Assembly: GCA_963740695.1 (NCBI GenBank)
Contig: CAVUFU010000011.1
Coordinates: 91,986-155,985, forward strand
DNA length: 64,000 nt
From: an uncultured Acidobacteriota bacterium
Lineage (GTDB): Bacteria > Acidobacteriota > Terriglobia > Acidiferrales > UBA7541
Direction: 5' to 3'
A program made the position numbers and the translations under genes. Below are positions 11,122 through 31,550 of the stretch, piece by piece. Under the pieces are notes generated by a model that searched no databases, had not been told where the DNA came from, and worked only from the letters and a program-made list of their open reading frames with translations. Each line of letters opens with the position of its first letter. The stretch's first letter is position 1.

Positions 11122-11176
11122 GACGCGGGACGATTAGGCGCGACGGCGCTGCAGTGGCGCGGAGAACTGAGGAGCC

Positions 11177-15812: not shown

Positions 15813-15816
15813 GACG

Positions 15817-15830
15817 TTAACTATAGTTAA
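15817..15830. promoter_or_regulatory. Perfect 14-bp AT-rich palindrome TTAACTATAGTTAA, 5 nt upstream of the TonB-dependent receptor start codon.
   Basis: Read directly from the sequence. It is its own reverse complement and sits in an unusually AT-rich patch (15813..15860) of a GC-rich window. Confidence 0.35.
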
Positions 15831-16000
15831 GTACTATGATTAATGCAAGTAAAGCGATAGGAGATACGAGCGTTACGTAAGAATGCCAATGCCGATGAAG
15901 GAAGAAACAAAGCTTTGGAATTCATGCGCAAAGCTTGCGGAGTAGCGGACGGCTCTGCGGTTTGCGGTTTACTGCTTCCCTGCCCCACCACCTCCCTGCC

Positions 16001-17473: not shown

Positions 17474-17493
17474 GTGTAGATTCGCCTTCTAGA

Positions 17494-17543
17494 AAGTGGT
17501 ACAGCCGAAATACTGTAAGTGGTTCTTTGCTGCTGGTCCACTA
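17494..17543. promoter_or_regulatory. Candidate MocR operator: two direct repeats and one inverted copy of AGTGG(T/A).
   Basis: AAGTGGTAC (17494..17502), AAGTGGTTC (17517..17525, 23 nt later) and GGTCCACTA (17535..17543, reverse complement TAGTGGACC). They lie in the divergent MocR/cupin intergenic region. Confidence 0.45.
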
Positions 17544-17574
17544 TTGTTTAACTTAGGGTTCGGAGGAATTGACC

Positions 17575-18051
17575 ATGACCAAGCTTACGCAGAGAGCGGC
17601 CCTGCTAACCGCGATGTCGCTCGCTGCCACCGCTGGAAGTTATGCGGCCCGCGCACAGGCGTCGGGCGCGCAAGCGCAAACGCAGGCGAACGGCGCGAAA
17701 CAAGTGCGCGTCGCGTTCACCCAAGCTCTGCCGCAACTCGACGGCAGCCACCTGAAGGCCACGTTGGTGGAAGTCACCTACGGCCCCGGGGCATCTTCTG
17801 CTCCACACAGCCATCCGTGCCCCGTGATCGTCTACGTCGTGAAAGGAACCCTGCGGGCAAAAGTGAAGGGCGAACCGGAAGCGGTTTACCACGCGGGCGA
17901 AAGCTTCTTCGAAGCGCCCAACGGCGTGCACGAAATTTCCGCCAACGCCAGCAAAACGGAAGCGGTGAAATTCGTCGCTTACTTCGTTTGCGACCATGAC
18001 ACCGAACTGAGCGTGCCCCCGCCGAGCACCCAACCCGCAGGAGGCAAATAA
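17575..18051 (+). CDS. Secreted cupin-domain protein.
   Basis: Signal peptide (LLTAMSLAATAGSYAARAQA) and a cupin core (APHSHPCPVIVYVVKGTL...GESFFEAPNGVH). I prefer the ATG at 17575 over the TTG at 17569. Confidence 0.75.
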   Translation: MTKLTQRAALLTAMSLAATAGSYAARAQASGAQAQTQANGAKQVRVAFTQALPQLDGSHLKATLVEVTYGPGASSAPHSHPCPVIVYVVKGTLRAKVKGEPEAVYHAGESFFEAPNGVHEISANASKTEAVKFVAYFVCDHDTELSVPPPSTQPAGGK

Positions 18052-18053
18052 CC

Positions 18054-18527
18054 ATGAGCAGCAATGCGCCACTAACTTCGACGGAAAATAAACCGCAGTC
18101 CGCGGCAAAATCCGTTCGCACGCTAAAGCTTGAGCGGTTGGGGATTCTCTACGCGCGCTTCGCACTCGGCGCAGCGTTTCTCTCCGGCATCGCAGACCGC
18201 TTCGGGTTGTACACCGGTCGCAATGTAGGTTACGGCGATTTCACGGGATTCGAAGCGTACACCGCCAAGGTGAACTCGTTCATGCCGGCTTCGACGATAC
18301 CGTTTCTAGCGTGGGCCGCGACCGCCGCCGAATTTTCCCTGGGCGTCGCGTTGATTCTGGGAATTTGGCCGCGCTGGGTGGCGCTGGCGAGCGCGCTGCT
18401 GCTCGTGCTCTTCGGCACGGCCATGGCAATTTCCTTCGGTATCAAATCGCCGCTGGATTACTCGGTGTTTTCGGCGTCCGCTGCGGCAGTGTTGCTCGCG
18501 TTGTACGGATCAGGACCCATGAAGTGA
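18054..18527 (+). CDS. DoxX-family membrane protein.
   Basis: Four predicted TM segments and a DoxX-like N-terminus (LYARFALGAAFLSGIADRFG). It starts 2 nt after the cupin gene. Confidence 0.55.
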   Translation: MSSNAPLTSTENKPQSAAKSVRTLKLERLGILYARFALGAAFLSGIADRFGLYTGRNVGYGDFTGFEAYTAKVNSFMPASTIPFLAWAATAAEFSLGVALILGIWPRWVALASALLLVLFGTAMAISFGIKSPLDYSVFSASAAAVLLALYGSGPMK

Positions 18528-18648
18528 TTTTTTCGCACCGGACTTTTCACCGTAAGCCACGAAGGATCGGCAGCGGTCTTTGAAGATGCATTTGAATCGC
18601 GGTCAATAGGTCCCGCACCACCACATCGAGTTAAAAAGGAGCTTCACC

Positions 18649-19110
18649 ATGAAACGAAATCTGCTGCTCACCGTCGTACTTGCAATTGCCGCCTTGGCCG
18701 CGCTCCGCTCCGCGGCCGCGCCATCACCAGATTCCGGGAAAGACCAGCTTCTCGCCGCCCGCGAAGCGGTGTGGCGCGACTGGTTCGCGGGCGATCAAGC
18801 CGCCCTGGAAAGCGAAGTCCCGCCGGAAACAATCGCCATCAGCGCCAGCGAGACGACTTGGCATAACCAGAAGGAAATACTGCAATCCGCCGCCGATTTT
18901 CACGCGGGCGGTGGAAAGCTGCTGCGCCTGGAATTTCCGCGCACGGAGATCCAGCGATTCGGCGATGTCGCCATGCTCTACAGCCAATATGTGCTGGAAA
19001 CCGAAACGAACGGCAAGCGCTCCGAGGAATCGGGGCGCGTTACGGAGATATTCGTGTGGCGCGACGGCCACTGGGTCAATCCCGGCTGGCACACCGACGC
19101 CGTCAAGTAA
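18649..19110 (+). CDS. Secreted SnoaL-like/DUF4440 (NTF2-fold) protein.
   Basis: Signal peptide, and a C-terminal GRVTEIFVWRDGHWVNPGWH motif typical of DUF4440. SD aaaggag upstream. Confidence 0.6.
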   Translation: MKRNLLLTVVLAIAALAALRSAAAPSPDSGKDQLLAAREAVWRDWFAGDQAALESEVPPETIAISASETTWHNQKEILQSAADFHAGGGKLLRLEFPRTEIQRFGDVAMLYSQYVLETETNGKRSEESGRVTEIFVWRDGHWVNPGWHTDAVK

Positions 19111-19319: not shown

Positions 19320-21779
19320 ATGGAAACGTCTTCCGCGCTCTTTGAGCTTGCGAGCGTGGCTTTAGCCTGTCGCGACCAGGACACTTTGCTAAAAACGTTC
19401 GCCGCGCGCGTGGGCGCCAGCCTCGGCGCGCGCGCCGTTTTTGTGTGGACGCACGCTCCGGCTTCGAACGGCTCGCAGCACAGCAACGGCGACGAATCCG
19501 AAGGTCTGATCTGCCGCATGCGCTGGAACGAACCCGGGGAGCGGCTCGCGCCACTGGGCGAATCCGTCAGCGAAGGACTCCTCGCCGAAATCTACGAATC
19601 CGCTGAAACGCGGCGGCTGGGCGGCAAAGAAGTGGCCGACGACGGCTTCGAGCATCTCGATGACGCCAGCCGCGCGCGGGTGAAATCCGCGCTGTTTGCT
19701 TCGCTGCCGGGCGCGCAAAGCGCCGAAGGCGTCGTGGAAGTGCTCAACAAGCGCAGCGGCGAATTCACCGACGAAGACGCGCATTTCCTGGAGGAAGCCA
19801 GCCGGCTGGCCGGGACCGCACTCACGAACCTCGACGCTATCGAAAGCGAGCGCCACGCCCAGCTTTCGACGCTGGAACGCCTGACAGCGCTCTACGATCT
19901 CGGCCGCACGTTCACCTCTACGCTCGAACTCGGGGAATTGCTTCCAATTGTCGCTGGCAAAATTCGCGACATCCTCGGCGCCGGGTCCTGCAATCTGTGG
20001 CTCGCAGACGCGGGCTCGCAGGAAATGTATCTCGCGCAAAAAACCGGCGAAGATCCCACTATCGAGGATGATGCGCGCGTCTCGCTCACGGAAGGCTTGC
20101 TGGCGGAAGTCGCCCAGCAAGCGAGCCCGAAACTGGTGGAAGATCCCGCTGCGGAAGCCGGCTTCGCCGAGCGCTTGAAAGCCGGCGGCGAATTCGAAAT
20201 TAGCTCGTGGATCGGCGCACCGTTGCGCAAATCCAATGAAGTGCTGGGCGTCGTCGAACTGGTCAACAAACAAGACGGTTCGTCGTTCGACGAAGACGAT
20301 TTGTTTTTTCTCGAGACCATCAGCGAACAAGCTGCGGTGGCGCTGCACAATGCCAACCTGCTGGAATCCGAGCGCAAGGTTCACGCCCTCGACGCGCTGC
20401 TGAAAATTTCGCGGGAAATCACTTCCACACTCGATCTCGATCACGTCCTCTCCACCGTGGTGCACCAAGCCTCTTCAGTGGTTCCGTTCGATCGCTGCGT
20501 GATCGGCTTCTTCGACCGCGGCCGTTTCGTCCTTGGAGCGCTGTCCGGCGAGCCTGAAGTTCCCAAGACGCGTGAGATGAGCGACTTGCGTTCACGGCTG
20601 GAGTGGGTCGCCGGGCAGGAACAAGCCGTCTCCGCGGATCTCTACGAAGACGGTTGGCGCACGAACCCGGAAGATGCTCGCGCGCAAATTGTTCCTTTCC
20701 TCGAAGAGCACGAAGAAAACGGTTTCTACGCGCTGCCCCTGCGTGATGATCAAGGCACGCTGGGCGTGATGGCGCTGCTTAGCAGCGACGCCGATTTTCT
20801 CAGCGAAAATAATCGCGAGACGGTGGCGATTCTCGCGAACCAGACCACCGTCGCGATACGCAACGCGCAGCTCTACCAGCAAGTCCCGCTTGCGAATTTG
20901 CTGCAGCCCTGGACGCAGCGCAAAAAGAAACTGATGTCGGCGGTACCGCGCGGGCGCTGGGTGGAATATGCGCAGCGCGTTGGACTCGGCCTGATATTTC
21001 TCGCAGTCGTCCCCTGGCCGATGCGCGTAGGGACGGATGCGACCGTGGTTCCCGCCGAGCGCCGTTTGGTCAGCGCGATTGATGGCGGCGTGGTGCAGCG
21101 GGTCTTCGTTCACGAAGGCGACAAAGTGCAAGCCGGTCAGGCACTCGCGCAGCTCGATGACGGCGACGATCGCGTGAAGCTGGCGCAAGCGGAATCCGCT
21201 CTCGCGCAAGCGCGCCGCGATCTGGCCGACGCGGAGTTCCGCAACGATCCTTCCGCGGCGGGGCAGGCCAAAATCCGCGCGGACCTGCACGAATCCGAGG
21301 TGCAGCTCGAACAGCAGCGCGTCGCCGAGGCGCAACTGCGTTCGCCCATCGCGGGAATGGTGATCACGCCGAAAGTGGAAGAGAAGGCCGGCACGCTGGT
21401 AAAGCCGGGCGATGCTTTTGCCGAAATTGTGGGAGAAGACCGCATGGCGGCCGAAATGAGCGTGCCGGAAGAGGATTTGGAGCTGGTGCACCCGGGAAAA
21501 AATGTCGCGCTGAAATTGAACGCGTATCCCACCACCACGTTTCAAGGCACCGTCGAACGCATCGGCGCGCAGACGAAATCCGCGGCGGGAGAACAATATT
21601 TTATCGTGCGCGCGGTTTTTGATAATCCGGGCGGGCTTGCGCGCGACGGCATGGTGGGACGCGCGCGAATTCACGCCGGTGGCGGATGGTTTAAGAGCGG
21701 ATGGTATCCGGTGGGATACACTCTTTTGCGTTCACCCTTCCGTTGGCTGTGGCAAGAAGCGTGGAGTTGGCTGCCCTAG
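19320..21779 (+). CDS. Three tandem GAF domains + TM segment + HlyD/MFP-type periplasmic adaptor domain.
   Basis: 819 aa. It has three GAF-like repeats, the latter two ending in ...VALHNANLLE / ...VAIRNAQLYQ-type helices. A TM segment follows (VGLGLIFLAVVPWP). Then come a lipoyl-like/beta-barrel MFP region (GGVVQRVFVHEGDKVQAGQALAQLDD ... SPIAGMVITP ...) and a short coiled-coil. Confidence 0.75.
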   Translation: METSSALFELASVALACRDQDTLLKTFAARVGASLGARAVFVWTHAPASNGSQHSNGDESEGLICRMRWNEPGERLAPLGESVSEGLLAEIYESAETRRLGGKEVADDGFEHLDDASRARVKSALFASLPGAQSAEGVVEVLNKRSGEFTDEDAHFLEEASRLAGTALTNLDAIESERHAQLSTLERLTALYDLGRTFTSTLELGELLPIVAGKIRDILGAGSCNLWLADAGSQEMYLAQKTGEDPTIEDDARVSLTEGLLAEVAQQASPKLVEDPAAEAGFAERLKAGGEFEISSWIGAPLRKSNEVLGVVELVNKQDGSSFDEDDLFFLETISEQAAVALHNANLLESERKVHALDALLKISREITSTLDLDHVLSTVVHQASSVVPFDRCVIGFFDRGRFVLGALSGEPEVPKTREMSDLRSRLEWVAGQEQAVSADLYEDGWRTNPEDARAQIVPFLEEHEENGFYALPLRDDQGTLGVMALLSSDADFLSENNRETVAILANQTTVAIRNAQLYQQVPLANLLQPWTQRKKKLMSAVPRGRWVEYAQRVGLGLIFLAVVPWPMRVGTDATVVPAERRLVSAIDGGVVQRVFVHEGDKVQAGQALAQLDDGDDRVKLAQAESALAQARRDLADAEFRNDPSAAGQAKIRADLHESEVQLEQQRVAEAQLRSPIAGMVITPKVEEKAGTLVKPGDAFAEIVGEDRMAAEMSVPEEDLELVHPGKNVALKLNAYPTTTFQGTVERIGAQTKSAAGEQYFIVRAVFDNPGGLARDGMVGRARIHAGGGWFKSGWYPVGYTLLRSPFRWLWQEAWSWLP

Positions 21780-21818: not shown

Positions 21819-22745
21819 ATGAAGAAATTTGCACTGGCGTTGTTGATCGTCGCAACGGCCATCTGTTGCATTGGCTGCGATAATTCGACTGGGGCGTCCA
21901 GCCCGACGCCCGCGCCGCCTCCAGCGGCCGTTGCCCCTCCTCCCGCTGCCGTTACCGCGACGGCGAAGCCCGGTGACATCCTCAGCGTCCTGACGGTAGA
22001 GCATCAGGTGGATATCACCGCGCAGCGCGATGGAGTCGTCACCTCGCTCACGAGAGACGAAGGCAGCTCCGTAAAAGCAAACGAGGTGTTAGGCCAGCTC
22101 GACGACCGCTCCTTGCAAATGGAACTCATCAAGGCCCGCGACGATCTGCAAGTGGAGGATAACAACCGCAAATACAAGGAAGCCGAGCTCAAAGCCAAGA
22201 CCGCAGCTTTCCATCGCCAGCAGCAACTTCGCGCGCTAGGGCTTTCCAGCGACGCCGATCTGGAAGCCGCCGATTTTGAAGCCAAAGCCGCGGAATACGA
22301 TTTGCACGGATACGAAGCGCTGGTGGAAAGCGGCCACGCAGAAATCAATCGCCTGGATCTGGAACTTGACCAGACTCGCATTCATGCGCCCTTCGCCGGC
22401 GTCGTCGTACGGCGCTACATCCGCGAGGGGCAAGCCATTTCCAAAGGCGACAAATGTTTTCGCGTCAGCCAGCTCGCTCCGTTGCAAGTGCAATTCCAGG
22501 TGCCGGAATCTTCCGGGCGTCGTCCCACCGCCGGCGGCACCGTGGAGCTCTCGCTCGTAGACGACTCGAATCGCGCGCTCAATGCGCGGATTATGAAAGT
22601 CAGTCCCACGGTGGACGCCGCGAGCGACAGCTATGACGTTCTGGCGCAGCTTATTGGGCCTGGCCTCACGGATTTGCGGCCGGGCATGGCCGTGCGCGTA
22701 AGTTGGCCCGGCACGGCGCAGCCCAATTCACGCCCGAAACCCTGA
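21819..22745 (+). CDS. Lipoprotein, HlyD/RND-type membrane fusion protein.
   Basis: Lipobox LLIVATAICCIGC, a Pro/Ala linker, and MFP motifs (RDGVVTSLTRDEGSSVKANEVLGQLDD; coiled-coil; IHAPFAGVVVRRYIREGQ). Confidence 0.8.
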   Translation: MKKFALALLIVATAICCIGCDNSTGASSPTPAPPPAAVAPPPAAVTATAKPGDILSVLTVEHQVDITAQRDGVVTSLTRDEGSSVKANEVLGQLDDRSLQMELIKARDDLQVEDNNRKYKEAELKAKTAAFHRQQQLRALGLSSDADLEAADFEAKAAEYDLHGYEALVESGHAEINRLDLELDQTRIHAPFAGVVVRRYIREGQAISKGDKCFRVSQLAPLQVQFQVPESSGRRPTAGGTVELSLVDDSNRALNARIMKVSPTVDAASDSYDVLAQLIGPGLTDLRPGMAVRVSWPGTAQPNSRPKP

Positions 22746-22757
22746 CGGGAACATTCA

Positions 22758-24905
22758 ATGCGTTTTGGACCCACCAGCCTGCAAGTCTCCAGCGTCGCAG
22801 CCAAGGGCTTGCGCCGCCCGAAACTGCGCGAGGATCTACGGATCAGCGAGCAGACAGTGGCGGGCGAGACTAGCTACGTCATCAAGAACTACGAGACCAA
22901 TTCCTACAATCGCTACGGCAGCACGGAGTATGAGCTGCTCAAATTGTGCGACGGCGCGCACACCGCTGCCGAAATTTCAGATGAATTGACCACGCTCCAT
23001 CCGGATTCGCCGCTCAGCGAAGCCGAGGTGCTCGATTTCCTCGACAGCATCGAGCCCGCGATGTGGGAACGTTCGGTGGGCGAGAAGAATCTGGCAGTGC
23101 TCGAACGCATTCGCGACGAGCGCAAGGGCCGCGTCGATCAATCCAGCGTGCTGTATATCAGTTTCAAGGCTTGGGACCCCGACAAGACGCTCGCGAAAAT
23201 TGATCCCTACTTGAGCTGGATGTTCACATCCGGGTTTGTCGTTTTCTCGCTTTTCATATTCGTCATCGCCTGCTACCTGTTGGCCGGCGATTGGGCGCGC
23301 GTGCAACAGGATACTTCCGCGCTCTACAACTTTTCGGATAAGAGCGCCTACGACATCTGGATGTTCTGGATCCTGCTGATGATTCTTGGAGGGATCCACG
23401 AATTCGGGCACGGGCTCACCTGCAAGCACTTCGGTGGCGACGTGCACCAGATGGGATTTCTGCTGATTTATTTCACGCCCGCCTTCTACACGGACACCAC
23501 GGACATCCTTCTCTTCAAACGCGGCTCACAGCGCCAGTGGGTGATCTTCGCCGGCATCTGGATCGAATTGGTGCTGTGCGGGCTTTCGGGAGTGGTGTGG
23601 CACTTCTCGGCCGCCGGTTCGGTGCTGAACGACCTGGCCTATAAAATGATGCTGCTCAGCGGCATTCAAGGCGCGTTATTAAACTTGAATCCGCTGATCA
23701 AAGCGGACGGCTACTACGCGCTTTCGCAATTCCTGCAGGTGGACAACCTGCGCGAGGATTCTTTCGCATTTCTCCGCGCGTGGGCAGAGAAATATCTGCT
23801 GCGCCATGACATCGACTTGCCCGCGGCCAGCAAACGCCAGCGCCGCATCTTCTTTCTCTTCGGCGTCGCCGCCATCATTTACAGCACGTCGCTGTTGATC
23901 CTGGTTCTGACCTTTGCGAACAACGTTCTGGTGTCCAAGCTCGGAGATTGGTGGGGCGCACTGGCGACTCTGGGCGTGGTCTATTTCTTCACGCGGAAAG
24001 GAATCCGGCAGGTTTGGCCGCCCACGCTGGCCTGGCTGCGCCAGAAACGGGAGGACTACATGGCTTGGAAAATGACGCGCACGCAACAAGCGGGAGCGTT
24101 GGGCGTCGCGCTGCTGCTCCTTCTGCCGCCCGTAGGTTCCAGTGTCTCCACTCCTCTGGTGCTCGAACCGGGGCGAACCGCGCACGTTCACGCTGAAGTG
24201 CCCGGTCAAATCGCAAATGTCTACATTCAACAGGGTCAAACCGTTCAAGCCGGACAGGTGCTCGCCATCCTGCGCAACCCTGAAATCGAAGCGGACGCCG
24301 CCATTCTTCGCGAGCAACTTGCCCTGGCCAGTAGCGACCTGCGCAACGGGCAGGATCGCTCGGACTATGAAAAGGCCGCCGGCGCGGTGCGCGATCGCAA
24401 GCGTCTTCAAGAGGAATTCTCGGTTGCCGAAAATCGCGTCGCGGCGCTGCAGATTCGCGCACCGATGGATGGCGTTATTGCCACCGCCGGTGTGAGCCAA
24501 CGCGCCGGCGCGTTTCTTGACGCCGGCGATGAACTAACCACCGTAGTGGACCGCAGCACGATGAAAGCCCGCATCCTGGTTCGCGATTGGGACCTGGAGG
24601 ACGTTCATCCCGGCGCCGCAGCGAAAGCGAAAGTGATTCCGTTTCCGTACCGCACGTATAGCGGCAAAGTGGATCAAATCCTCCCGGCAGCAGCAGCCGA
24701 TCGCCCCGTCTCCGAGACGCAAGACCTGCAGCGCCTCGGCCAGCAGCTCACCAATTACTTTGCCGTGGACATGGAATTCGCCAATCCGGACGGCTCGTTG
24801 CGCGAGGGAATGACTGGGACGGCGAAAATCGCCGGCAAGAGGTCCTCGATAGCCCACCAGGTAGCCAGGGCCACCTCGCGCTGGATTCACGCACAGTTCT
24901 GGTAG
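22758..24905 (+). CDS. Fusion protein: PqqD-like (RRE-type) N-terminal domain + M50 site-2-protease membrane domain + HlyD/MFP C-terminal domain.
   Basis: 715 aa. The N-terminus YVIKNYETNSYNRYGSTEYELLKLCDGAHTAAEISDELTTLHP...EVLDFLDSI matches the PqqD pattern by eye. HExxH is at IHEFGHGLTCKHFGG and the second M50 motif at NLNPLIKADGYY. The C-terminus is MFP-like (VPGQIANVYIQQGQTVQAGQVLAIL ... APMDGVIAT ...). Confidence 0.75.
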   Translation: MRFGPTSLQVSSVAAKGLRRPKLREDLRISEQTVAGETSYVIKNYETNSYNRYGSTEYELLKLCDGAHTAAEISDELTTLHPDSPLSEAEVLDFLDSIEPAMWERSVGEKNLAVLERIRDERKGRVDQSSVLYISFKAWDPDKTLAKIDPYLSWMFTSGFVVFSLFIFVIACYLLAGDWARVQQDTSALYNFSDKSAYDIWMFWILLMILGGIHEFGHGLTCKHFGGDVHQMGFLLIYFTPAFYTDTTDILLFKRGSQRQWVIFAGIWIELVLCGLSGVVWHFSAAGSVLNDLAYKMMLLSGIQGALLNLNPLIKADGYYALSQFLQVDNLREDSFAFLRAWAEKYLLRHDIDLPAASKRQRRIFFLFGVAAIIYSTSLLILVLTFANNVLVSKLGDWWGALATLGVVYFFTRKGIRQVWPPTLAWLRQKREDYMAWKMTRTQQAGALGVALLLLLPPVGSSVSTPLVLEPGRTAHVHAEVPGQIANVYIQQGQTVQAGQVLAILRNPEIEADAAILREQLALASSDLRNGQDRSDYEKAAGAVRDRKRLQEEFSVAENRVAALQIRAPMDGVIATAGVSQRAGAFLDAGDELTTVVDRSTMKARILVRDWDLEDVHPGAAAKAKVIPFPYRTYSGKVDQILPAAAADRPVSETQDLQRLGQQLTNYFAVDMEFANPDGSLREGMTGTAKIAGKRSSIAHQVARATSRWIHAQFW

Positions 24906-25037: not shown

Positions 25038-25145
25038 TTACTGGAACCTGATCAAGGGCTTAATGCCCGGCAGGTCGGCGCGCTTCATCAACGGCTTTAC
25101 GTTACCGGTCTTCTTGCCCTTCACTGGCTTGGCATTCTTGGCCAT
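25038..25145 (-). CDS. Lys-rich micropeptide 1 (35 aa): MAKNAKPVKGKKTGNVKPLMKRADLPGIKPLIRFQ.
   Basis: Hand translation. SD AAGGGAGA lies 7 nt before the ATG (25145). It shares MAK...KK-x3-(T/V)KPL(M/L) with peptides 2 and 3. It is below the size cut-off of the ORF track. Confidence 0.55.
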   Translation of the reverse strand: MAKNAKPVKGKKTGNVKPLMKRADLPGIKPLIRFQ

Positions 25146-25196
25146 GATCCAATCTCCCTTGATCTTGTGTTTGTAACGCCGGCTCTGCAAACTCTT

Positions 25197-25232
25197 GAAA
25201 AGGGCCGCCCCTCGACGGCATCAGCCCTTTTC
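25197..25232 (-). other. Stem-loop between micropeptide genes 2 and 1 (terminator or attenuator candidate).
   Basis: Perfect 9-bp arms GAAAAGGGC (25197..25205) / GCCCTTTTC (25224..25232). There is no clean U-tract after it. Confidence 0.35.
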
Positions 25233-25306
25233 CAGGCTGAAACTTTGCAACGCCCTCACACCGCGTTCCTGAAACAACGCCGGTTGCCGAGCGTCGCAGT
25301 GGGAAC

Positions 25307-25384
25307 TTACCTCTTGCCGACCGGAACCATCAACGGCTTCGTCGCTTCGATCTTCTTTGCCTTCTTCAAGGTCTTCTTTGCCAT
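25307..25384 (-). CDS. Lys-rich micropeptide 2 (25 aa): MAKKTLKKAKKIEATKPLMVPVGKR.
   Basis: It forms the C-terminal part of the listed 114-aa ORF 25307..25651. SD GAGGGGGA lies 6 nt before the internal ATG at 25384, and a sigma54 promoter lies 49 nt upstream. It differs from peptide 3 in the first 18 codons by 4 synonymous third-position changes and 4 replacements. Confidence 0.65.
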   Translation of the reverse strand: MAKKTLKKAKKIEATKPLMVPVGKR

Positions 25385-25432: not shown

Positions 25433-25449
25433 ATGCAACGCTATCACCA
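25433..25449 (-). promoter_or_regulatory. Sigma54 (-24/-12) promoter for micropeptide 2.
   Basis: The minus strand reads TGGTGATAGCGTTGCAT, with GG-N10-GC spacing exactly as in the consensus TGGCAC-N5-TTGCA/T. Confidence 0.7.
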
Positions 25450-25559: not shown

Positions 25560-25579
25560 CCTGTTGAAAATTTCAACGG
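25560..25579. promoter_or_regulatory. Palindromic upstream activator site (enhancer B).
   Basis: GTTGAAA-a-TTTCAAC has perfect 7-bp arms (25563..25577). Its centre is about 129 nt upstream of the sigma54 promoter at 25433..25449. Confidence 0.6.
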
Positions 25580-25785: not shown

Positions 25786-25863
25786 CTACTTATACGCGAT
25801 TGCTTTCAGCAACGGCTTGGTCGGGTTGATCTTCTTCGATTTCTTCAAGGTTTTCTTGGCCAT
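25786..25863 (-). CDS. Lys-rich micropeptide 3 (25 aa): MAKKTLKKSKKINPTKPLLKAIAYK.
   Basis: Hand translation. SD TGGGAGA lies 5 nt before the ATG (25863), a sigma54 promoter lies 47 nt upstream, and a terminator lies about 70 nt downstream. Confidence 0.65.
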   Translation of the reverse strand: MAKKTLKKSKKINPTKPLLKAIAYK

Positions 25864-25909: not shown

Positions 25910-25926
25910 ATGCAAAGTCGTCGCCA
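25910..25926 (-). promoter_or_regulatory. Sigma54 (-24/-12) promoter for micropeptide 3.
   Basis: The minus strand reads TGGCGACGACTTTGCAT, with GG-N10-GC spacing. The flanks align with the promoter at 25433..25449 (TTTGG(C/T)GA...TTGCATA). Confidence 0.7.
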
Positions 25927-26039: not shown

Positions 26040-26058
26040 CCGTTGATATTTTCAACGG
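26040..26058. promoter_or_regulatory. Palindromic upstream activator site (enhancer A).
   Basis: The plus strand reads CCGTTGATATTTTCAACGG (minus strand CCGTTGAAAATATCAACGG). Arms match 8 of 9. It has the same core as the site at 25560..25579. Its centre is about 131 nt upstream of the promoter at 25910..25926, and it overlaps the stop codon of the second SET gene. Confidence 0.6.
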
Positions 26059-26546
26059 CGCCTTCGGCTGCGCCGGCCATTGATCGTGCCGCGGCAGCTA
26101 GCCGCACCACAACGGCACGGAATCTGTTCCGCGTCGGGATGAAACCGATAGTCCAGAGTCAATTCTTCCCCTTTCGTTATCGTCCGGCGGCTGAACAACA
26201 GCATGCGGCCTCGCGCCCGGCGGTACGCAAGATTGGGGTCGCAACAGTGATTGATCAGTTGAGCTCCGTTTCCACCTACGGCTCCATTGATGACCCAGCG
26301 CTTGTTGAGACTCGCCAGATAAACCGGCGTGTGCAGTGAAGACTTCCAGTGCCGGTTGTGGGCTTGCAGTACTCGGCTGTACGGCACAAGCTCACCGGTG
26401 TACTCGATCACCTTGTGCCGCGCAGGAATCGCTTCTTCGGCGAATACGCCCCAGCGATGTATGGGCGACCGCCGGACCTTCAGCCGGTAGCGGGACGCTC
26501 CCGGAGCGATGGACCTGCGCACCGGTGATTGCTTACGAGCTGGCAT
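26052..26546 (-). CDS. SET-domain protein-lysine methyltransferase-like protein (copy B).
   Basis: RYRLKVRRSPIHRWGVFA..., LINHCCDPN (the NHSCxPN motif), GEELTLDYRF (catalytic Tyr context) and post-SET CRCGAASCRGT. I prefer the ATG at 26546 (MPARKQSP...) by analogy with copy A. That ATG lies 2 nt after the copy A stop (TAA-cg-ATG). Confidence 0.85.
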   Translation of the reverse strand: MPARKQSPVRRSIAPGASRYRLKVRRSPIHRWGVFAEEAIPARHKVIEYTGELVPYSRVLQAHNRHWKSSLHTPVYLASLNKRWVINGAVGGNGAQLINHCCDPNLAYRRARGRMLLFSRRTITKGEELTLDYRFHPDAEQIPCRCGAASCRGTINGRRSRRRR

Positions 26547-26548
26547 CG

Positions 26549-27004
26549 TTAATTCAAAATGACCCGGAGCGTGCCGCGGCACCGGCGCTCTCCGCAACGA
26601 CAGGGGATCCGTCGGATTTTGACCGCGTAGCGGTAACTCACGGTCAGTTCTTCGCCAGAACGAATTTTCCGGAGGCTACATAAGTAAAGCCGGCTGCGGA
26701 CGCATCGCCACATCAAATTGGGCCGGCATGAATGGTTGATGAACTGAGCGCCGCTTCCGCCCGATCTGCCGTCCACGCACCAGGTGGAATTCATCGCGGC
26801 GATGTAGATATCGTTCGGGGGGTTGATCCTCGCGGCGTCTCCGTAAGTGAGGCGTTTTCCGGTGTATTCGATCACGCGGCGGTGGCGCGGAATCTCCTCA
26901 AGCGCAAAGACGCCGTAGCGATGCAGCGTGGAATGCGCGACCCGCAGCCGGTAGCGAGCCGCCTTCGGATTGATCTGGCGCGACTTGGGGCTGGATGCTT
27001 TCAT
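26549..27004 (-). CDS. SET-domain protein-lysine methyltransferase-like protein (copy A).
   Basis: RYRLRVAHSTLHRYGVFA..., FINHSCRPN, GEELTVSYRY and post-SET CRCGERRCRGT. Confidence 0.85.
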   Translation of the reverse strand: MKASSPKSRQINPKAARYRLRVAHSTLHRYGVFALEEIPRHRRVIEYTGKRLTYGDAARINPPNDIYIAAMNSTWCVDGRSGGSGAQFINHSCRPNLMWRCVRSRLYLCSLRKIRSGEELTVSYRYAVKIRRIPCRCGERRCRGTLRVILN

Positions 27005-27096: not shown

Positions 27097-28449
27097 TCAC
27101 AAATTATATTTGCGGCAGAGGTAATTCAGCCGGTTGCGGTCCACACCCAACAGGTTCGCCGCGTCCGCCTTCACGTGCTTGGCCTGCTCCAGCGCCTCCT
27201 CAATCCAGCGCCGTTCGAAGGCCTCGATTTCTCGGTCCAATTTGATGCCTGTGGACGGCAGCCGGAACCGCCCACGCGCGTCACGGCCGACGGACTGCAC
27301 GATTTCCGCCGGCAGATCCTTCAGGGTGATGGCGTCGCCGTCGGTCATGATCACCAGGCGCTGAATCGCGTTCTCCAGTTCGCGAACGTTCCCCGGCCAC
27401 GGATAGCGTTTCAGTGCCAGCATGGCGTCGTCGGCGATCTGCTTCGCGGGAAACCCGTTCGCCGCGGAATACACGCTCACGAAATAATCTGCCAGCACCG
27501 GAATATCTTCCACCCGTTCGCGCAGCGCCGGAACGAATATAGGCACCACGTGAATCCGGTAATAAAGGTCCTCGCGGAATCGGTCCTGCCGCACCATCTC
27601 TTCCAAGTCTTCGTTCGTCGCGCTCACGAGCCGAAAATCCACGCGGATGGATTTTTTCCCGCCGAGGCGCGTCAGCGAACGGTCCTCCAGCACCCGCAGC
27701 AATTTGCTCTGCAGCGCCGGCGTGAGCGTCGCAATTTCATCCAAAAATAGTGTCCCTTGGTGCGCCAGCTCGATGCGGCCTTCTTTCATCGCGACGGCGC
27801 CGGTAAACGCGCCGCGCTCGTAGCCGAAAAGCTCCGCCTCCATCAATCCTTCCGGCAGCGCGGCGCAATTCACGCCGATGAACGCCCGGCTGCGCCGCGG
27901 ACTCTGCTCATGCAGCGCGCGCGCCACCAATTCTTTCCCGACGCCGCTTTCCCCGCGGATGATCACGTTAGTCGTCGCGCGGGCCATCCGCTTGATCGAA
28001 TCGAAGACGTGGCGCATGGCGTCCGTAGCGCCGATCAAATCTCCCAGCGTATTTTTGCGGCTGATTTCGTCGCGCAGGATGCGATTCTCTCGCTGGATGT
28101 GGAGTTTTTCGATGGCGCGCTCGAGCAACAGCCGCAGCACGTCCGTATCAATCGGCTGAATGAAATAATCGTAGCAGCCCGCGTCAATCACTTTCAGCGC
28201 CGTGGATTTCGTCTGATCGGTGCTCAGAACGATCACCAGCGTGTCGATGTCTCCGCACGCGAGGCGGCTCAGCATCTCCGTGCATTCGCGCAGTCCGCCG
28301 GATTCCATCGGCAGCGCAAGGAGCAGCACGTCCAGGCTCGCTTCCTGCAAGAGCCGGTAAGCAGTCTCGTAGTCCTCGCCCTCGATTACCTCAAAATCCG
28401 AACGCAGCTTCGCCACGATGCTCGCGCGCATGGCCGCGTCATCATCCAC
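27097..28449 (-). CDS. Sigma54-dependent transcriptional activator (NtrC family): receiver-like domain + AAA+ domain + Fis-type HTH.
   Basis: Walker A GESGVGKE, the GAFTGA loop (ERGAFTGAV) and a C-terminal HTH (AANLLGVDRNRLNYLCRKYNL). The receiver is degenerate (see findings). The listed start is GTG. The frame stays open upstream (AKIAI-VDDD) with only ATT/ATA codons there, so the start is uncertain. Confidence 0.88.
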   Translation of the reverse strand: MDDDAAMRASIVAKLRSDFEVIEGEDYETAYRLLQEASLDVLLLALPMESGGLRECTEMLSRLACGDIDTLVIVLSTDQTKSTALKVIDAGCYDYFIQPIDTDVLRLLLERAIEKLHIQRENRILRDEISRKNTLGDLIGATDAMRHVFDSIKRMARATTNVIIRGESGVGKELVARALHEQSPRRSRAFIGVNCAALPEGLMEAELFGYERGAFTGAVAMKEGRIELAHQGTLFLDEIATLTPALQSKLLRVLEDRSLTRLGGKKSIRVDFRLVSATNEDLEEMVRQDRFREDLYYRIHVVPIFVPALRERVEDIPVLADYFVSVYSAANGFPAKQIADDAMLALKRYPWPGNVRELENAIQRLVIMTDGDAITLKDLPAEIVQSVGRDARGRFRLPSTGIKLDREIEAFERRWIEEALEQAKHVKADAANLLGVDRNRLNYLCRKYNL

Positions 28450-29404: not shown

Positions 29405-29920
29405 ATGAGATACACCAAGTACTTCATGATTTTCGCTTTATTCGGACTTTGCTTAGCGATCGCGCCGAACGCGCATGCGCAACGCGTTGTCGTCGGCGTG
29501 GGAGTCGGACCTGGGTACGTGGATCCAGCTCCCGTCTGCGCTTACGGATACTATGGATATTACCCGTACGCTTGCGCACCCTACGGCTACTATGGCCCTA
29601 GCTGGTTCTCCGGCGGCCTATTCATTGGCGCCGGCCCGTGGTATCGCGGCGGCTATTGGGGTCGCTCCGGATACTGGGGACGTCCTGGATGGGGCGGGTA
29701 CGGCGGCCACGGTTACTACGGCGGTCATGGCTACTACGGCGGCCGCGGATATGTAGGACACGGTGAGGTTGGCGGCGGTTACCGCGGCGGCAGCGCCTAT
29801 CGCGGTGGCAACAGCTTCCACGGCGGCGGTAGCTTTCACGGAAGCGCCTCTCACGGTGGGGAGGGTTTCCACGGAGGTGGCGGCGGCCACGGCGGCGGCC
29901 ACGGTGGCGGCCACAGGTAA
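29405..29920 (+). CDS. Secreted low-complexity Gly/Tyr/His-rich protein.
   Basis: Sec signal peptide (FALFGLCLAIAPNAHA). It is followed by YGYYGYYPY, GGYWGRSGYWGRPGWGGYGGHGYYGGHGYYGG and a C-terminal HGGGGGHGGGHGGGH tail. Confidence 0.7.
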   Translation: MRYTKYFMIFALFGLCLAIAPNAHAQRVVVGVGVGPGYVDPAPVCAYGYYGYYPYACAPYGYYGPSWFSGGLFIGAGPWYRGGYWGRSGYWGRPGWGGYGGHGYYGGHGYYGGRGYVGHGEVGGGYRGGSAYRGGNSFHGGGSFHGSASHGGEGFHGGGGGHGGGHGGGHR

Positions 29921-29982: not shown

Positions 29983-30140
29983 GAACCCCACAAGTTTTAC
30001 TGACTTCGCATCATTTGTGCCCCTAGCAATTTGCCTGAGCTTCCGTGAAACGAACTGCGCGTAAGTTGCACTATCCATCAAGCGAACATACCGAGCAGTC
30101 GGCCCTACCTCCCCGGCGAAAGACGAGATTGGAGAAGACC

Positions 30141-31550
30141 ATGAAAAGCGCAATCAGCCGCCGTGATTTTTTGGGTGCCACAGCAGGAGCAGCAGCTTCG
30201 GCAACTCTTCTCGGGATTTCATTTTTGGATGCGCTTCCCGCACAAGCCGCGTCTTCCTTCGTGCGGCGTGACGTGGGAGGCATGAGCGCGACGGACCCGG
30301 TGCTCGTATCGTACGGGAAGGCCGTCCAGGCGATGCAAGCGCTGCCCGATGCGAATCCGCTGAGCTGGGCCTACCAGGCAGCGATTCACGGCACGACACT
30401 ATCGGGCAGCAACACGGCTTGGGATACCTGCCAACACGGGAACTATTTCTTCTGGTCGTGGCACCGCATGTACCTCTATTGGTTCGAACGGATCATCCGC
30501 AAGATGGCCGACGACCCGTGTTGGACCTTGCCCTACTGGAATTATACTTCGGCGGCCGAGCGGACCCTCCCGCCGCCGTTTCGCGACGCTACAAGCCCGC
30601 TCTTTACGTCTAACCGCGGCGCCGGGTGGAATACGGGTGCGGCTTCCTTTCCATCAGGGGACGTGCAATATTCGGCGGCCTTGTCGCTCTCGAATTTCAC
30701 GAACGGCAGCAGCTCCATCGAGCAATCCCCACATAACAACGTTCACGTGGACATCGGAGGATGGATGGGCGTGGTGGACATGGCGGCGCAGGACCCGATT
30801 TTCTTCGTTCACCACAGCAATATCGATCGCTTGTGGGATATTTGGCTGGCACAGACTCCCGGAGCCGGCGACCCAGTGGGCGACGCGACATGGAAGAGCA
30901 AGCAATTTACATTCTTCGATGAGAACGGAAACCAGGTGCAGATGACCGGCTGCGAGGTATTGCGCGCTCAACAGCAGCTGGGCTACAGCTACGAGGGTGA
31001 GCCTGCCCAAGTGAGCCCGAAGTGCCTGCTAATCGTCCTGCCGCCCTGGCTGTTCACCGAAGAAGTCTTCGCGCAGCTGCCAGGCCCGCCTGTGGAGTTG
31101 ACCGGCGAGACGGTGTCCTTCCCTATCAATCTCGCCGAACTCAGGAAACGTATTGCTCCCGTACTCGAAGACAAGAACAAGACAATCTTTCTACAGCTGG
31201 ATGACGTGGAGACGGAGAATCCGCCGGGCGTGGTGTGGGATGTATTCGTTGGATTGCCCGAGAAGGGCGCGCCCGATACCGAAAGCCCTTACTTTGTGGG
31301 TAGCTTGGCGATGTTTGGTCCCGGGATTCGGACTTCAAAACATCATAACGCGCCCGCACACTTCCGTTTCGCGATCAACCGCGCTCTTTCGGCGGCGATG
31401 AGGAACGAATCGGAACGCACTGCGGTGACGTTCATTCCCCACGGCGTGTTGATCGAGGGGAAACCTTCACGGCCCGAAGTGAAGTCGCCGGTTCGCATCG
31501 GAAAAGCCTCGCTGATCGTGGAGACGAAAGAAGAAAACAAGAAGCAATAG
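30141..31550 (+). CDS. TAT-exported tyrosinase/polyphenol oxidase (type-3 copper) with a C-terminal extension domain.
   Basis: Twin-arginine signal MKSAISRRDFLGATAG. CuA region HGNYFFWSWHRMYLYWFE. CuB region PHNNVHVDIGG...DPIFFVHHSNIDRLWDIW. I prefer the ATG at 30141 (SD ggagaag) over the ORF-track start at 30045. Confidence 0.88.
   Translation: MKSAISRRDFLGATAGAAASATLLGISFLDALPAQAASSFVRRDVGGMSATDPVLVSYGKAVQAMQALPDANPLSWAYQAAIHGTTLSGSNTAWDTCQHGNYFFWSWHRMYLYWFERIIRKMADDPCWTLPYWNYTSAAERTLPPPFRDATSPLFTSNRGAGWNTGAASFPSGDVQYSAALSLSNFTNGSSSIEQSPHNNVHVDIGGWMGVVDMAAQDPIFFVHHSNIDRLWDIWLAQTPGAGDPVGDATWKSKQFTFFDENGNQVQMTGCEVLRAQQQLGYSYEGEPAQVSPKCLLIVLPPWLFTEEVFAQLPGPPVELTGETVSFPINLAELRKRIAPVLEDKNKTIFLQLDDVETENPPGVVWDVFVGLPEKGAPDTESPYFVGSLAMFGPGIRTSKHHNAPAHFRFAINRALSAAMRNESERTAVTFIPHGVLIEGKPSRPEVKSPVRIGKASLIVETKEENKKQ

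Follow-up and report, generated by a model that had tools for sequence, protein, structure and literature searches.

A leader-binding domain, a site-2 protease and a membrane-fusion domain in one polypeptide: candidate core of a micropeptide system in Acidobacteriota

Introduction

Intramembrane proteases of the M50 family are known to mature soluble peptides, EpeP, TglG and MpaP being the examples. Daptides are said to have been discovered by way of a fusion between a leader-binding domain (RRE) and such a site-2 protease (S2P). In MpaP (NF041824) of the daptide pathway, an N-terminal RRE and an M50 intramembrane metalloprotease share one polypeptide, and the adjoining genes encode short precursors whose leader is conserved; removal of the leader, by RRE-dependent intramembrane proteolysis, is its proposed role (Ren et al. 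2023, Nat Commun 14:1624). EpeP (YydH, LiaK family), of the Bacillus epipeptide system, is another intramembrane protease of the M50 type. It matures a small ribosomal peptide, and the export of this peptide as well as its cleavage has been ascribed to it. Its partners in the yydFGHIJ operon are a radical-SAM epimerase and an ABC transporter.

Other systems share single traits with these. Site-2 proteases of the Eep/RseP type in Enterococcus and Streptococcus release short secreted signalling peptides of 7-8 residues; their substrates are lipoprotein signal peptides or SHP precursors, which are recognised without an RRE, and export is left to a separate ABC transporter, PptAB. Peptidase-containing ABC transporters (PCATs) with HlyD/MFP partners couple leader recognition, cleavage and export in one envelope machine, and act on precursors with a conserved leader and a variable core. 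Finally, the adaptors MacA, MexA and AcrA of MacAB-TolC-like assemblies pair with a transporter, and MacAB exports a peptide toxin.

In soil, Acidobacteriota rank among the most abundant bacteria, and to our knowledge almost nothing is known of their signalling and competition. Here we describe a locus in an uncultured soil member of the phylum (assembly GCA_963740695.1, contig CAVUFU010000011.1). The window analysed is the 64,000 nt stretch from position 91,986 to 155,985 of that contig, and all coordinates below are relative to its first letter.

Results

The protease gene encodes a 715-aa protein, starting with ATG, that is made up of the following parts:

22758-24905, + strand: RRE-M50(S2P)-MFP fusion protein, 715 aa (ORF call; Pfam and NCBIfam domains)
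22830-23057, + strand: RRE / PqqD-like leader-binding domain, aa 25-100 (fold, Foldseek and profile search; NF041824 alignment from aa 33)
23397-23411, + strand: HExxH zinc-binding/catalytic motif with H214, E215 and H218 (HEFGH, aa 214-218; sequence and family alignment)
23682-23711, + strand: second M50 motif, NxxPxxxxDG, with N309, P312, D317 and G318 (NLNPLIKADGY, aa 309-319; sequence and alignment)
24129-24902, + strand: periplasmic membrane-fusion (adaptor, MFP) domain, aa 458-715, its alpha-hairpin (aa 508-562) being short (Pfam, TIGR01730 and Foldseek)

This feature is more than a chance pattern. AlphaFold2 modelled the whole protein with a pLDDT of 83.6 and seven transmembrane helices, and in the predicted topology the N-terminus with the RRE is cytoplasmic, whereas the MFP domain lies on the periplasmic side. 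The core is laid out as in site-2 proteases, with HExxH in one transmembrane helix (197-224, near its cytoplasmic end in the model) and NxxPxxxxDG, with the third zinc ligand Asp, in another. All seven motif residues (H214, E215, H218, N309, P312, D317 and G318) are invariant in an alignment of 65 family sequences reaching down to 24% identity. The Pfam M50 model (PF02163) scored 23.2 against a cutoff of 27.2 and is thus sub-threshold.

The N-terminal domain was modelled with confidence (pLDDT >90 over aa 21-100) and has the beta3-alpha3 topology of an RRE, with strands at aa 28-34, 37-44 and 49-54 and helices at 55-63, 70-80 and 88-97; the model thus shows three strands and then three helices, like solved RREs. 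The best Foldseek matches in the PDB were RRE domains, namely TbiB1 with its leader (5v1v), PqqD (5sxy), lasso-peptide B1 and CteB (with 6jx3 and 5why among the top entries), at a probability of 0.97-1.00 and with target-normalised TM scores of 0.60-0.67 for stand-alone RREs; TglHI came further down. TfuB1 also belongs to the RiPP leader-binding domains best matched by fold or profile. A PDB sequence search with a profile of 46 N-termini gave TbiB1 (E 0.0028), PqqD 3g2b (0.0063) and PqqD 5sxy (0.023) as its top three matches. Pfam PqqD (PF05402) covered aa 40-97 at E 0.013 with the whole protein and 0.0026 with aa 1-120, its 16.3-18.5 bits falling short of the gathering score of 23.4. TIGR03859 (PqqD) aligned to aa 59-103 at E 2.4e-4, with 20.9 bits against a cutoff of 46. 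Since the Pfam PqqD model alone is under threshold, the assignment as an RRE rests on fold or profile.

At the other end of the protein, Pfam HlyD_D23 (PF16576; E 1.8e-17, 63.8 bits against a gathering score of 30) and HlyD_3 (PF13437; 63.7 bits against 22.2) were both above threshold, and TIGR01730 reached 89.2 bits, just under its cutoff of 94.9. Foldseek with the full-length model matched MacA, MexA, AcrA and ZneB at E 1e-15 to 1e-12. By family models and fold, the C-terminal domain therefore has the lipoyl, alpha-hairpin and beta-barrel parts of an HlyD-family adaptor. The preliminary description of the window, made from the letters alone, had read the protein as a PqqD-like domain fused to a catalytically intact site-2 protease and an MFP domain, and our analysis bears out all three parts.

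The protein has more than 1000 close homologues, mostly titled 'putative peptide zinc metalloprotease protein' or 'HlyD family adaptor', so that the current annotation of the family is only generic. Clustering at 50% identity gave 1264 representative clusters at E <= 1e-30 and 9535 at E <= 1e-3; the taxonomic breadth of the family was taken from the cluster-member listings.

On sequence, MpaP is the closest characterised homologue: NF041824 aligned to aa 33-411 at E 5e-53. The score of 180.6 bits was under the 300-bit equivalog cutoff, however, and MpaP itself has no MFP domain. Homologues of the daptide proteins MpaB (DUF-RRE), MpaC (oxidative decarboxylase), MpaD (aminotransferase) and MpaM (methyltransferase) are absent from the conserved module here. 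[quoted passage not shown] Moreover, the daptide pHMMs are named for Actinobacteria and Bacilli (Ren et al. 2023, Nat Commun 14:1624), and the host here is a diderm Acidobacterium. Membership of the daptides was rejected on the score, the missing MpaB/C/D/M co-occurrence and the leader. Membership of the epipeptides was likewise rejected, as NF058609 (YydH/LiaK) aligned only to aa 162-332 (E 1.3e-12) with 47.9 bits against a cutoff of 225; EpeP itself has neither an RRE nor an MFP domain, and both of its partners, the radical-SAM epimerase and the ABC transporter, are absent here. The likeness to Eep/RseP-type proteases lies in the release of short peptides from precursors by an M50 enzyme, and these proteases are also without an MFP fusion. 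PCATs differ in using a C39 cysteine peptidase, ABC-domain energy and a double-glycine (GG) leader, none of which is found here. The adaptor fold of MacA, MexA and AcrA is present in the C-terminal 260 residues; here, in contrast to the MacAB-TolC adaptors, it is covalently fused to the protease, its hairpin is short and the module holds no pump or outer-membrane factor. A fusion of RRE and S2P is therefore not new in itself, being already known from MpaP, while there seems to be no earlier description of the MFP fusion, of the peptide family or of the regulatory module. In the literature on M50/HlyD/RRE fusions and on Acidobacteria repeat precursors we found no description of an RRE-M50-MFP/micropeptide system. 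A cyanobacterial bacteriocin paper and the TMcin preprint were considered and are unrelated to it.

We compared 134 related loci whose proteases are 30-97% identical to the one here, made up of 54 genome loci (63-97%) and 80 metagenome loci (down to 30%). Where the flank was sufficient, the gene order was near-constant: GAF-MFP, MFP, RRE-M50-MFP, one or more convergent small peptide genes and a sigma-54 activator. In the window the protein-coding neighbours are:

11880-12266, - strand: STAS-domain protein (PF01740, E 8e-13), here separated from the module by about 7 kb of other genes
19320-21779, + strand: 819-aa protein with three GAF domains and then an MFP domain, first gene of the putative operon (Pfam GAF x3 and HlyD_D23)
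21819-22745, + strand: 308-aa MFP protein with an N-terminal signal-like segment, second gene (TIGR01730 at 132 bits, above cutoff; synteny)
26052-27004, - strand: two overlapping SET-domain genes (26052-26597 and 26549-27004; PF00856, E 5e-18 and 8e-19)
27097-28449, - strand: sigma-54 enhancer-binding protein with pseudo-receiver, AAA+ and HTH_8 domains (Pfam and NCBIfam)

In nearly all loci, those at 30% identity included, the GAF-MFP gene keeps its synteny with the protease gene, and the 308-aa MFP gene ends 12 nt before the protease gene. The STAS gene adjoins the module in 73 loci, the 30-34% clade included. The activator gene is always convergent with the protease operon (42-100% identity), and no protein of the module is better conserved than the activator, which is 79-100% identical within the close clade; its receiver domain lacks the phospho-acceptor Asp and the conserved Lys. 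The system is thus larger than a protease and its peptides, since it takes in two more MFP proteins, a STAS protein and the pseudo-receiver sigma-54 activator. In contrast, the SET genes are accessory and clade-specific, occurring in roughly half of the close loci and in a few distant ones (L066, L067, L083, L134 and L144); speculatively, their products could be Lys methyltransferases acting on the peptides.

In the gene-context survey of the loci, nothing in the conserved module encoded an energy-coupled transporter of the ABC, RND or MFS type, or a channel of the outer membrane. Candidates lying by the module in L144/L145, a MacB-like permease and an ABC pair, were checked. The MacB-like 'duplicated orphan permease' adjoins the module in one subclade of 15 loci only and is therefore outside its core.

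Three micropeptide genes lie between the protease gene and the SET genes, together with their promoter elements:

25038-25145, - strand: micropeptide A, 35 aa, MAKNAKPVKGKKTGNVKPLMKRADLPGIKPLIRFQ, with two xKPL hexads (ORF list; orthologues)
25307-25384, - strand: micropeptide B1, 25 aa, MAKKTLKKAKKIEATKPL followed by MVPVGKR (ORF list; orthologues)
25434-25449, - strand: sigma-54 promoter TGGTGATAGCGTTGCA, 65 nt upstream of the B1 start codon (motif search)
25563-25577, no strand assigned: palindrome GTTGAAAATTTCAAC, about 115-130 nt upstream of the B1 promoter, a putative site for binding of the activator (motif search)
25786-25863, - strand: micropeptide B2, 25 aa, MAKKTLKKSKKINPTKPL followed by LKAIAYK (ORF list; orthologues)
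25911-25926, - strand: sigma-54 promoter TGGCGACGACTTTGCA, 63 nt upstream of the B2 start codon (motif search)
26042-26056, no strand assigned: palindrome GTTGAAAATATCAAC, putative activator-binding site upstream of the B2 promoter (motif search)

The first of these convergent ORFs ends at 25038, its stop codon lying 133 nt past the last base of the protease gene, in agreement with the preliminary description, and in most loci an orthologue of micropeptide A comes directly behind the protease gene. The peptides have an 18-residue Lys-rich leader, MAKKTLKKxKK[IL]ExTKPL (MAKKTLKKxKKIExTKPL here). Among 61 unique B-type genes the leader is nearly invariant and the tail hypervariable, with 57 of the 61 tails distinct. 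In distant relatives the tail is replaced by tandem repeats of a 4-12-residue unit whose length and sequence differ between loci, and the leader of the distant 30-34% clade begins MAIQKKSLISNL. The micropeptides thus look like RiPP precursors, with a conserved leader and a variable core next to the gene of an RRE protein. When 12 different peptide sequences, some from the window and others from distant loci, were scanned against NCBIfam and Pfam, no meaningful family was found.

These genes are real: a Shine-Dalgarno sequence precedes every one, a sigma-54 promoter is present for most, two of the three here are followed by a terminator (24977-24945 for A and 25707-25688 for B2) and the invariant leader residues are encoded by synonymously varying codons. 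A sigma-54 promoter was found, at a fixed distance, for 84/148 close-clade peptide genes, and 17/28 distant-clade peptide genes also have one; a strict one was not found for micropeptide A in its subclade. Moreover, TTGA-N5-TCAA occurs 110-140 nt upstream of 68 of the 84 peptide promoters, where 0.03 would be expected.

Peptide genes with the Lys-rich leader follow the RRE-M50-MFP gene in every related locus with enough flank, from 97% to 30% identity. Candidate precursors also adjoin other distant members (L055, L056, L058 and L060), and that of L060 has a daptide-like LExLEERIAP leader. The Planctomycetota loci L059, L061 and L063 showed no obvious adjacent micro-ORF or peptide gene, and the peptide link is therefore established for the Acidobacteriota module only and not for the whole family.

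Lastly, the RRE is strongly acidic, with a net charge of about -9 here (about -8.6 in the close clade and -5.7 in the distant clade), and the leader, at about +7 (+6.7), is complementary to it. The correlation of the two charges across loci (Spearman -0.10, p 0.38) is uninformative because the range is narrow and the loci are related, and we rely on the overall complementarity only.

Discussion

We lean towards the explanation that a dedicated micropeptide system is encoded here, with the 715-aa protein as its core for processing and export. That the RRE points to a peptide substrate of its own and that the micropeptides are this substrate, as the preliminary description suggested, is strongly supported by comparative genomics, given the conserved adjacency, the real peptide genes, the acidic RRE facing a basic leader and the homology to MpaP.

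The steps of such a system, in which we infer leader binding, the cleavage site, export and the biological role, might run as follows. The activator, which we propose is free of phosphorylation control as it has a pseudo-receiver, would bind TTGA-N5-TCAA and turn on each micropeptide gene from its own sigma-54 promoter. The precursor would consist of a very basic 18-residue leader and a short hypervariable tail. The acidic cytoplasmic RRE would capture the leader, which by analogy with other RREs would add a strand beside the beta3/alpha3 fold, and the peptide would be fed into the M50 active site, which is predicted to open to the cytoplasmic face of the membrane. Cleavage would fall at or near the boundary of leader and tail, around TKPL, and release a product of 3-16 residues here, or, where distant relatives have tandem-repeat precursors, a 4-12-residue unit in many copies. 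The product may leave through a periplasmic assembly of the protease's own MFP domain and the two other MFP proteins, and the three cytoplasmic GAF domains on one of these could gate the system. A strain-specific secreted signal or antagonistic peptide would be the most likely product.

Several observations count against this explanation. The Pfam PqqD, Pfam M50 and NCBIfam scores lie under their curated cutoffs; micropeptide A has no recognisable sigma-54 promoter, and some Planctomycetota members have no adjacent peptide gene. Moreover, the module has no transporter or outer-membrane channel. We know of no precedent for export via MFP domains alone, and the system may therefore need unlinked partners. 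The tails are very short, and those of as few as 3 residues would be unusual products. It is also the leader rather than the tail that is conserved, and the leader could therefore be the functional moiety.

A regulatory reading we consider rather unlikely. Here the micropeptides would not be exported and would act in the cell or at its membrane as regulators, for instance of the sigma-54 activator, the STAS or the GAF protein; the RRE-M50 part would bind and degrade them or be inhibited by them, in a feedback of regulated intramembrane proteolysis, and the MFP domains would have another task, such as envelope sensing or assembly. Site-2 proteases classically work in regulatory proteolysis, STAS and GAF are typical signalling domains, and a module with no transporter or energy source fits such a role, as do the conservation of the leader and that of the activator (79-100% in the close clade), which has a pseudo-receiver and no kinase and therefore needs some other input. 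However, hypervariable tails and locus-specific tandem-repeat cores are hard to square with one conserved intracellular partner. Moreover, the presence of three MFP-domain proteins whose hairpins are MacA/MexA-like points to a conduit across the envelope, and the closest characterised relatives, MpaP and EpeP, mature secreted peptides.

We give a lower probability to a RiPP pathway confined to this clade, in which the SET enzymes would methylate the lysines of the peptides before the RRE-M50 protein acted as leader peptidase and exporter. The two SET genes sit between the peptide genes and the activator, they recur in about half of the close loci and in the five distant loci named above, the peptides are extremely Lys-rich, and unrelated methyltransferase-like ORFs lie among the peptide genes in L032, L036 and L040. 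Yet SET genes are missing from many loci with the whole module, including most of the 30-68% clades, and methylation therefore cannot be the core function. The lysines sit in the leader, which is normally discarded, and no other tailoring enzyme is conserved.

A coincidental or indirect linkage, with another substrate (e.g. a membrane protein), a generic winged-helix module and micropeptides that form an independent syntenic sigma-54 regulon, would suit the sub-threshold PqqD scores, the Planctomycetota relatives without adjacent peptides and the synteny that related genomes share by descent, but we judge it improbable, as the arrangement is kept down to 30% protease and 42% activator identity while flanking genes change completely, a leader-bearing peptide gene is always in the intergenic gap, candidate precursors also adjoin the distant L055, L056, L058 and L060 (the last with its daptide-like leader) and the top fold and profile matches are specifically RiPP RREs.

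If the processing and export model holds, the locus would define a new precursor family for ribosomal peptides, in which the leader is Lys-rich and the core either hypervariable or built of tandem repeats, and a new way of coupling leader recognition, intramembrane cleavage and trans-envelope export in one polypeptide. It would also define a sigma-54 regulon with a recognisable operator, and the concept of the RRE-dependent intramembrane protease would extend past daptides. For genome mining, the combination of an RRE-M50-MFP gene with a convergent micro-ORF behind it and then a sigma-54 activator offers a precise handle.

More tentatively, the loci may represent a class of peptide-producing machines that is widespread in Acidobacteriota and as yet undescribed, and to which proteases in Planctomycetota are related. 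It would turn micro-precursors, made of a leader and either tandem repeats or a tail, into many copies of short strain-specific secreted peptides. Such a class would combine the RRE-S2P-MFP protein with two further MFPs, one of them gated by GAF domains, as well as a STAS protein and a sigma-54 activator that does not depend on phosphorylation, with no ABC transporter or core tailoring enzymes. If true, this would be a Gram-negative counterpart of the peptide pheromone and bacteriocin systems of Gram-positive bacteria, in a dominant soil phylum that is among the least understood.

Organisation of the protease gene module

The micropeptides encoded beside the protease fusion belong to its system, and the module that unites them is co-conserved. 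The relevant genes of the window are:

11880-12266 (-), STAS-domain (SpoIIAA-like) gene, adjoining pstB-phoU, with ~7 kb of unrelated genes before the module
19320-21779 (+), GAF-MFP protein, three GAF domains then an MFP (membrane-fusion protein) domain; first of a tight same-strand series
21819-22745 (+), MFP protein, 308 aa; second gene, 39 nt after GAF-MFP
22758-24905 (+), RRE-M50-MFP protein, 715 aa; third gene, 12 nt after the 308-aa MFP gene
25145-25038 (-), micropeptide A, MAKNAKPVKGKKTGNVKPLMKRADLPGIKPLIRFQ; convergent with the protease gene
25384-25307 (-), micropeptide B1, MAKKTLKKAKKIEATKPLMVPVGKR; convergent with the protease gene
25863-25786 (-), micropeptide B2, MAKKTLKKSKKINPTKPLLKAIAYK; convergent with the protease gene
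26052-26597 and 26549-27004 (-), two overlapping SET-domain genes, putative protein lysine methyltransferases, between the micropeptide genes and the activator
27097-28449 (-), sigma-54 enhancer-binding protein (activator), same strand as the micropeptides, beyond the SET genes

Each micropeptide gene has a Shine-Dalgarno sequence, and terminator hairpins lie 3′ of A and B2. The STAS-domain gene is a conserved neighbour of the module in 73 loci, including the clade at 30-34% identity, and elsewhere it is usually divergent from GAF-MFP and directly adjoins it. The gene block that separates the two in the window (12297-19110) is missing there in many related loci; it encodes a 1171-aa outer-membrane beta-barrel with CarboxypepD_reg, a GntR-aminotransferase fusion, a cupin, a DoxX protein and a DUF4440 protein, and appears to have been inserted or rearranged into the module. 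Also in the window, and conserved in the closest relatives, is a 171-aa Gly/Tyr/His-rich ORF (29405-29920, +); it has a signal-like N-terminus, matches nothing in Pfam and precedes a tyrosinase gene (30045-31550, +).

Domain architecture of the protease fusion

The preliminary description read the 715-aa protein as a PqqD-like leader-binding domain (RRE) fused to an intact site-2 protease and an MFP domain, and this observation is confirmed. Among curated models, HlyD_D23 (E 1.8e-17) and HlyD_3 (E 3e-17) clearly match the C-terminal MFP domain, Peptidase_M50 (23.2 bits, threshold 27.2) and PqqD (aa 40-97, 16-18 bits, threshold 23.4) are sub-threshold, and TIGR03859 (PqqD) aligns to aa 59-103 (E 2.4e-4). 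The top single match is NCBIfam NF041824, 'daptide biosynthesis intramembrane metalloprotease' (E 5e-53, 180 bits, cutoff 300), whose alignment spans aa 33-411 and hence takes in the protease core as well as the N-terminal domain. Both quoted M50 motifs can be read from the sequence (HEFGH, aa 214-218; NLNPLIKADGY, aa 309-319). Moreover, H214, E215, H218, N309, P312, D317 and G318 are invariant across the protein and 64 relatives, at identities down to 24%, so that the M50 site-2 protease has an intact zinc site, as had been claimed.

An AlphaFold2 model of the N-terminus, built from an alignment of 46 family N-termini, has pLDDT >90 over aa 21-100 and the canonical RRE order of elements, b28-34, b37-44, b49-54, a55-63, a70-80, a88-97, ahead of a long helix (aa 107-127). 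When this domain was compared with the PDB by Foldseek, RiPP leader-binding domains ranked first: TbiB1 with leader (5v1v, 5v1u), PqqD (5sxy) and lasso-peptide B1 (6jx3) at probability 1.0 and target-normalised TM 0.60-0.67, then CteB (5why) at probability 0.97, with TglHI (8hci) further down. A profile search had been proposed as the means of refuting the PqqD/RRE assignment; searched against PDB sequences, the profile of the same alignment recovered TbiB1 (E 0.0028), PqqD 3g2b (0.0063) and PqqD 5sxy (0.023) as its top three matches. Judged by predicted fold and profile, the N-terminus is an RRE.

The full-length model (mean pLDDT 83.6) has seven TM helices after the RRE and linker helix (~158-177, 197-224, 256-283, 289-309, 359-395, 397-436, 441-455), and HExxH is in the second of these, near its cytoplasmic end. 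With an odd number of helices, the RRE is cytoplasmic and the C-terminal domain periplasmic. The C-terminal 260 residues are modelled as a lipoyl domain, a short alpha-hairpin (508-533, 537-562) and a beta-barrel, and match MacA, MexA, AcrA and ZneB in a fold search (E 1e-15 to 1e-12), which together with the HlyD matches bears out the MFP assignment. Within the close clade, mean identity to the window protein is 79% for the RRE, 81% for the protease core and 67% for the MFP domain; constraint on the RRE is similar to that on the protease core and stronger than that on the MFP domain. The most conserved segments in this clade, aa 1-24 (window 22758-22829) and linker aa 101-140 (23058-23177), both at 94% mean identity, fall outside the recognised domains; contact with partners and gating of the active site are possible roles.

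Micropeptides in close relatives

Taking one genome per species, we recovered 54 loci with proteases 63-97% identical, all from Acidobacteriota metagenome-assembled genomes (Acidiferrales, Sulfotelmatobacter, Terriglobia). The order GAF-MFP, MFP, RRE-M50-MFP, convergent activator is held in essentially all 54 with differing outer flanks, and wherever a close locus extends far enough, the gap carries one to four micropeptide genes in convergent orientation. The peptide subtypes are:

A, 34-39 aa, two or three xxxKPL hexads
B, MAKKTLKK[SA]KK[IL][EQ]xTKPL plus a 3-13-residue tail
C, ...KKLExTKPLxR[AS]PW...

In the 18-residue type-B leader, compared over 61 unique genes, the amino acids hardly change but the codons vary (four codons at A2, four at L18), which shows that selection acts on the translated product. 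The micropeptide genes are genuine. Type-B tails are basic, without Cys and almost without Asp/Glu, and 57 of the 61 are distinct. Scans of 12 peptides from the window and from distant loci against the Pfam and NCBIfam libraries matched them to no meaningful family.

Three close relatives (L001 ~14854, L002 ~15272, L027 ~16083; -) have a fourth Lys-rich micropeptide type (M..KKASKKLRKSKSLKKVKSLIV..LPAVQ) ~4.7 kb past the protease gene, and no counterpart was found in the window. About half of the close loci, and a few distant ones, also carry SET genes. Minus its initiator Met, the leader would start AKKTLKKSKK, a histone-tail-like sequence, and Lys methylation of the peptides by the SET proteins is possible. 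A class-I-methyltransferase-like ORF (~10910-11500, +) occurs among the micropeptide genes of L032, L036, L040 and L043, a subclade without SET genes.

Putative sigma-54 control of the peptide genes

Exact sigma-54 promoters (TGGY-N7-TTGCA) stand 65 nt (B1) and 63 nt (B2) before the ATG, and only four strict sites occur in the whole 64-kb window. Palindromes GTTGAAAATTTCAAC and GTTGAAAATATCAAC, putative operators for the activator, are found ~115-130 nt upstream of the B1/B2 promoters. In close relatives, 84/148 peptide genes have a strict promoter at a fixed distance, and 68/84 such promoters have a TTGA-N5-TCAA palindrome 110-140 nt upstream (0.03 expected by chance); in distant relatives, sigma-54 promoters precede 17/28 peptide genes. 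Orthologues of micropeptide A in other subclades have a sigma-54 promoter at about -62 to -82, whereas none is recognisable in the window's subclade (window 25146-25306); here read-through, or a promoter of another type, may account for its transcription. Aligned with Aquifex NtrC1, the activator has a pseudo-receiver, with Ala for the phospho-acceptor Asp and Gln for the conserved Lys. Its first strand also appears truncated. No histidine kinase was found in the module or near the activator.

Distant relatives and spread of the family

A metagenome search with the family alignment as query gave 80 further loci (30-80% identity), and the module is retained down to 30% protease and 42% activator identity, again with convergent small ORFs in a 500-700-nt gap. 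Peptides of the 30-34% clade have the leader M[AS]IQKKSLI[SG]NLxxxKKAIxA, then tandem repeats of 4-12 residues that are wholly different between loci (DLGKRV x12, QTAKHPGL x7, GGPNKLT x13, AGTLSK x8, LAKGT x10, ARVTPV x10, RANT x10). Intermediate clades have Lys-rich leaders and three or four repeats, e.g. ALTRPG and GVKTLS. Individually sampled distant members follow this pattern: L055 and L114 (RANPLA-type repeats), L056 (QRGSLT x4, activator behind) and L058 (ARKAPFGGGAEE repeats). L060 has an upstream 81-aa ORF bearing a daptide-like leader, LELEALEERIAP. This last ORF (6749-6994, +) has a Ser/Lys/Gly/Cys-rich repetitive core, the protease relative is of 819 aa and two FemAB-like genes adjoin; L060 may represent a different peptide pathway on the same protease family.

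With aa 1-450 as query, an exhaustive search yielded 1264 representative clusters at E <= 1e-30; at E <= 1e-3 the number rose to 9535. The top matches are mostly 680-860 aa long and align from ~residue 20, and the three-part architecture is therefore common. Named members come from Acidiferrales, Blastocatellia and Planctomycetota. Three sampled relatives (two from Planctomycetota) have other gene contexts with no obvious adjoining micro-ORF, and in one of them a GAF protein adjoins the protease.

Relation to known systems and proposed mechanism

MpaP, the homologue from the daptide pathway, is an intramembrane leader peptidase that depends on its RRE, and this RRE provided the handle for daptide discovery (Ren et al. 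2023, Nat Commun 14:1624). By analogy, the window protein may work in a similar way. However, membership of the daptide system is rejected on the sub-cutoff NF041824 score (180 vs 300 bits), the absence of MpaB, MpaC, MpaD and MpaM, and a different leader and C-terminus. Membership of the epipeptide protease family is also rejected (48 vs 225 bits). Small soluble peptides are matured by other M50 enzymes too, namely TglG/TmoG and EpeP, the last of which is thought to combine cleavage with export. A similar logic of leader recognition, cleavage and export is seen in peptidase-containing ABC exporters with HlyD partners, but the window protein is of another protease type and has no ATPase. Our literature search brought up no description of an RRE-S2P-MFP fusion, of these peptides or of this module.

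The RRE and leader are electrostatically matched, with an RRE net charge of ~-8.6 (close clade) or ~-5.7 (distant clade) against ~+6.7 for leader residues 1-20. We propose that the activator drives peptide expression and that the Lys-rich leader is bound by the RRE. The protease would then cut near the leader/tail junction, or between repeats in relatives, and the fragments would exit via a complex formed by the three MFP-domain proteins, with the GAF domains as a possible gate. Export is the weakest step, since the conserved module of close and distant loci contains no ABC, RND or MFS component and no outer-membrane factor; a MacB-like permease adjoins it in one subclade only. Taken together, independent lines of evidence from fold, profile, homology and comparative genomics support the earlier interpretation of the micropeptides as the putative peptide substrates, and we class the window protein with the RRE-guided intramembrane leader peptidases, an already known kind.
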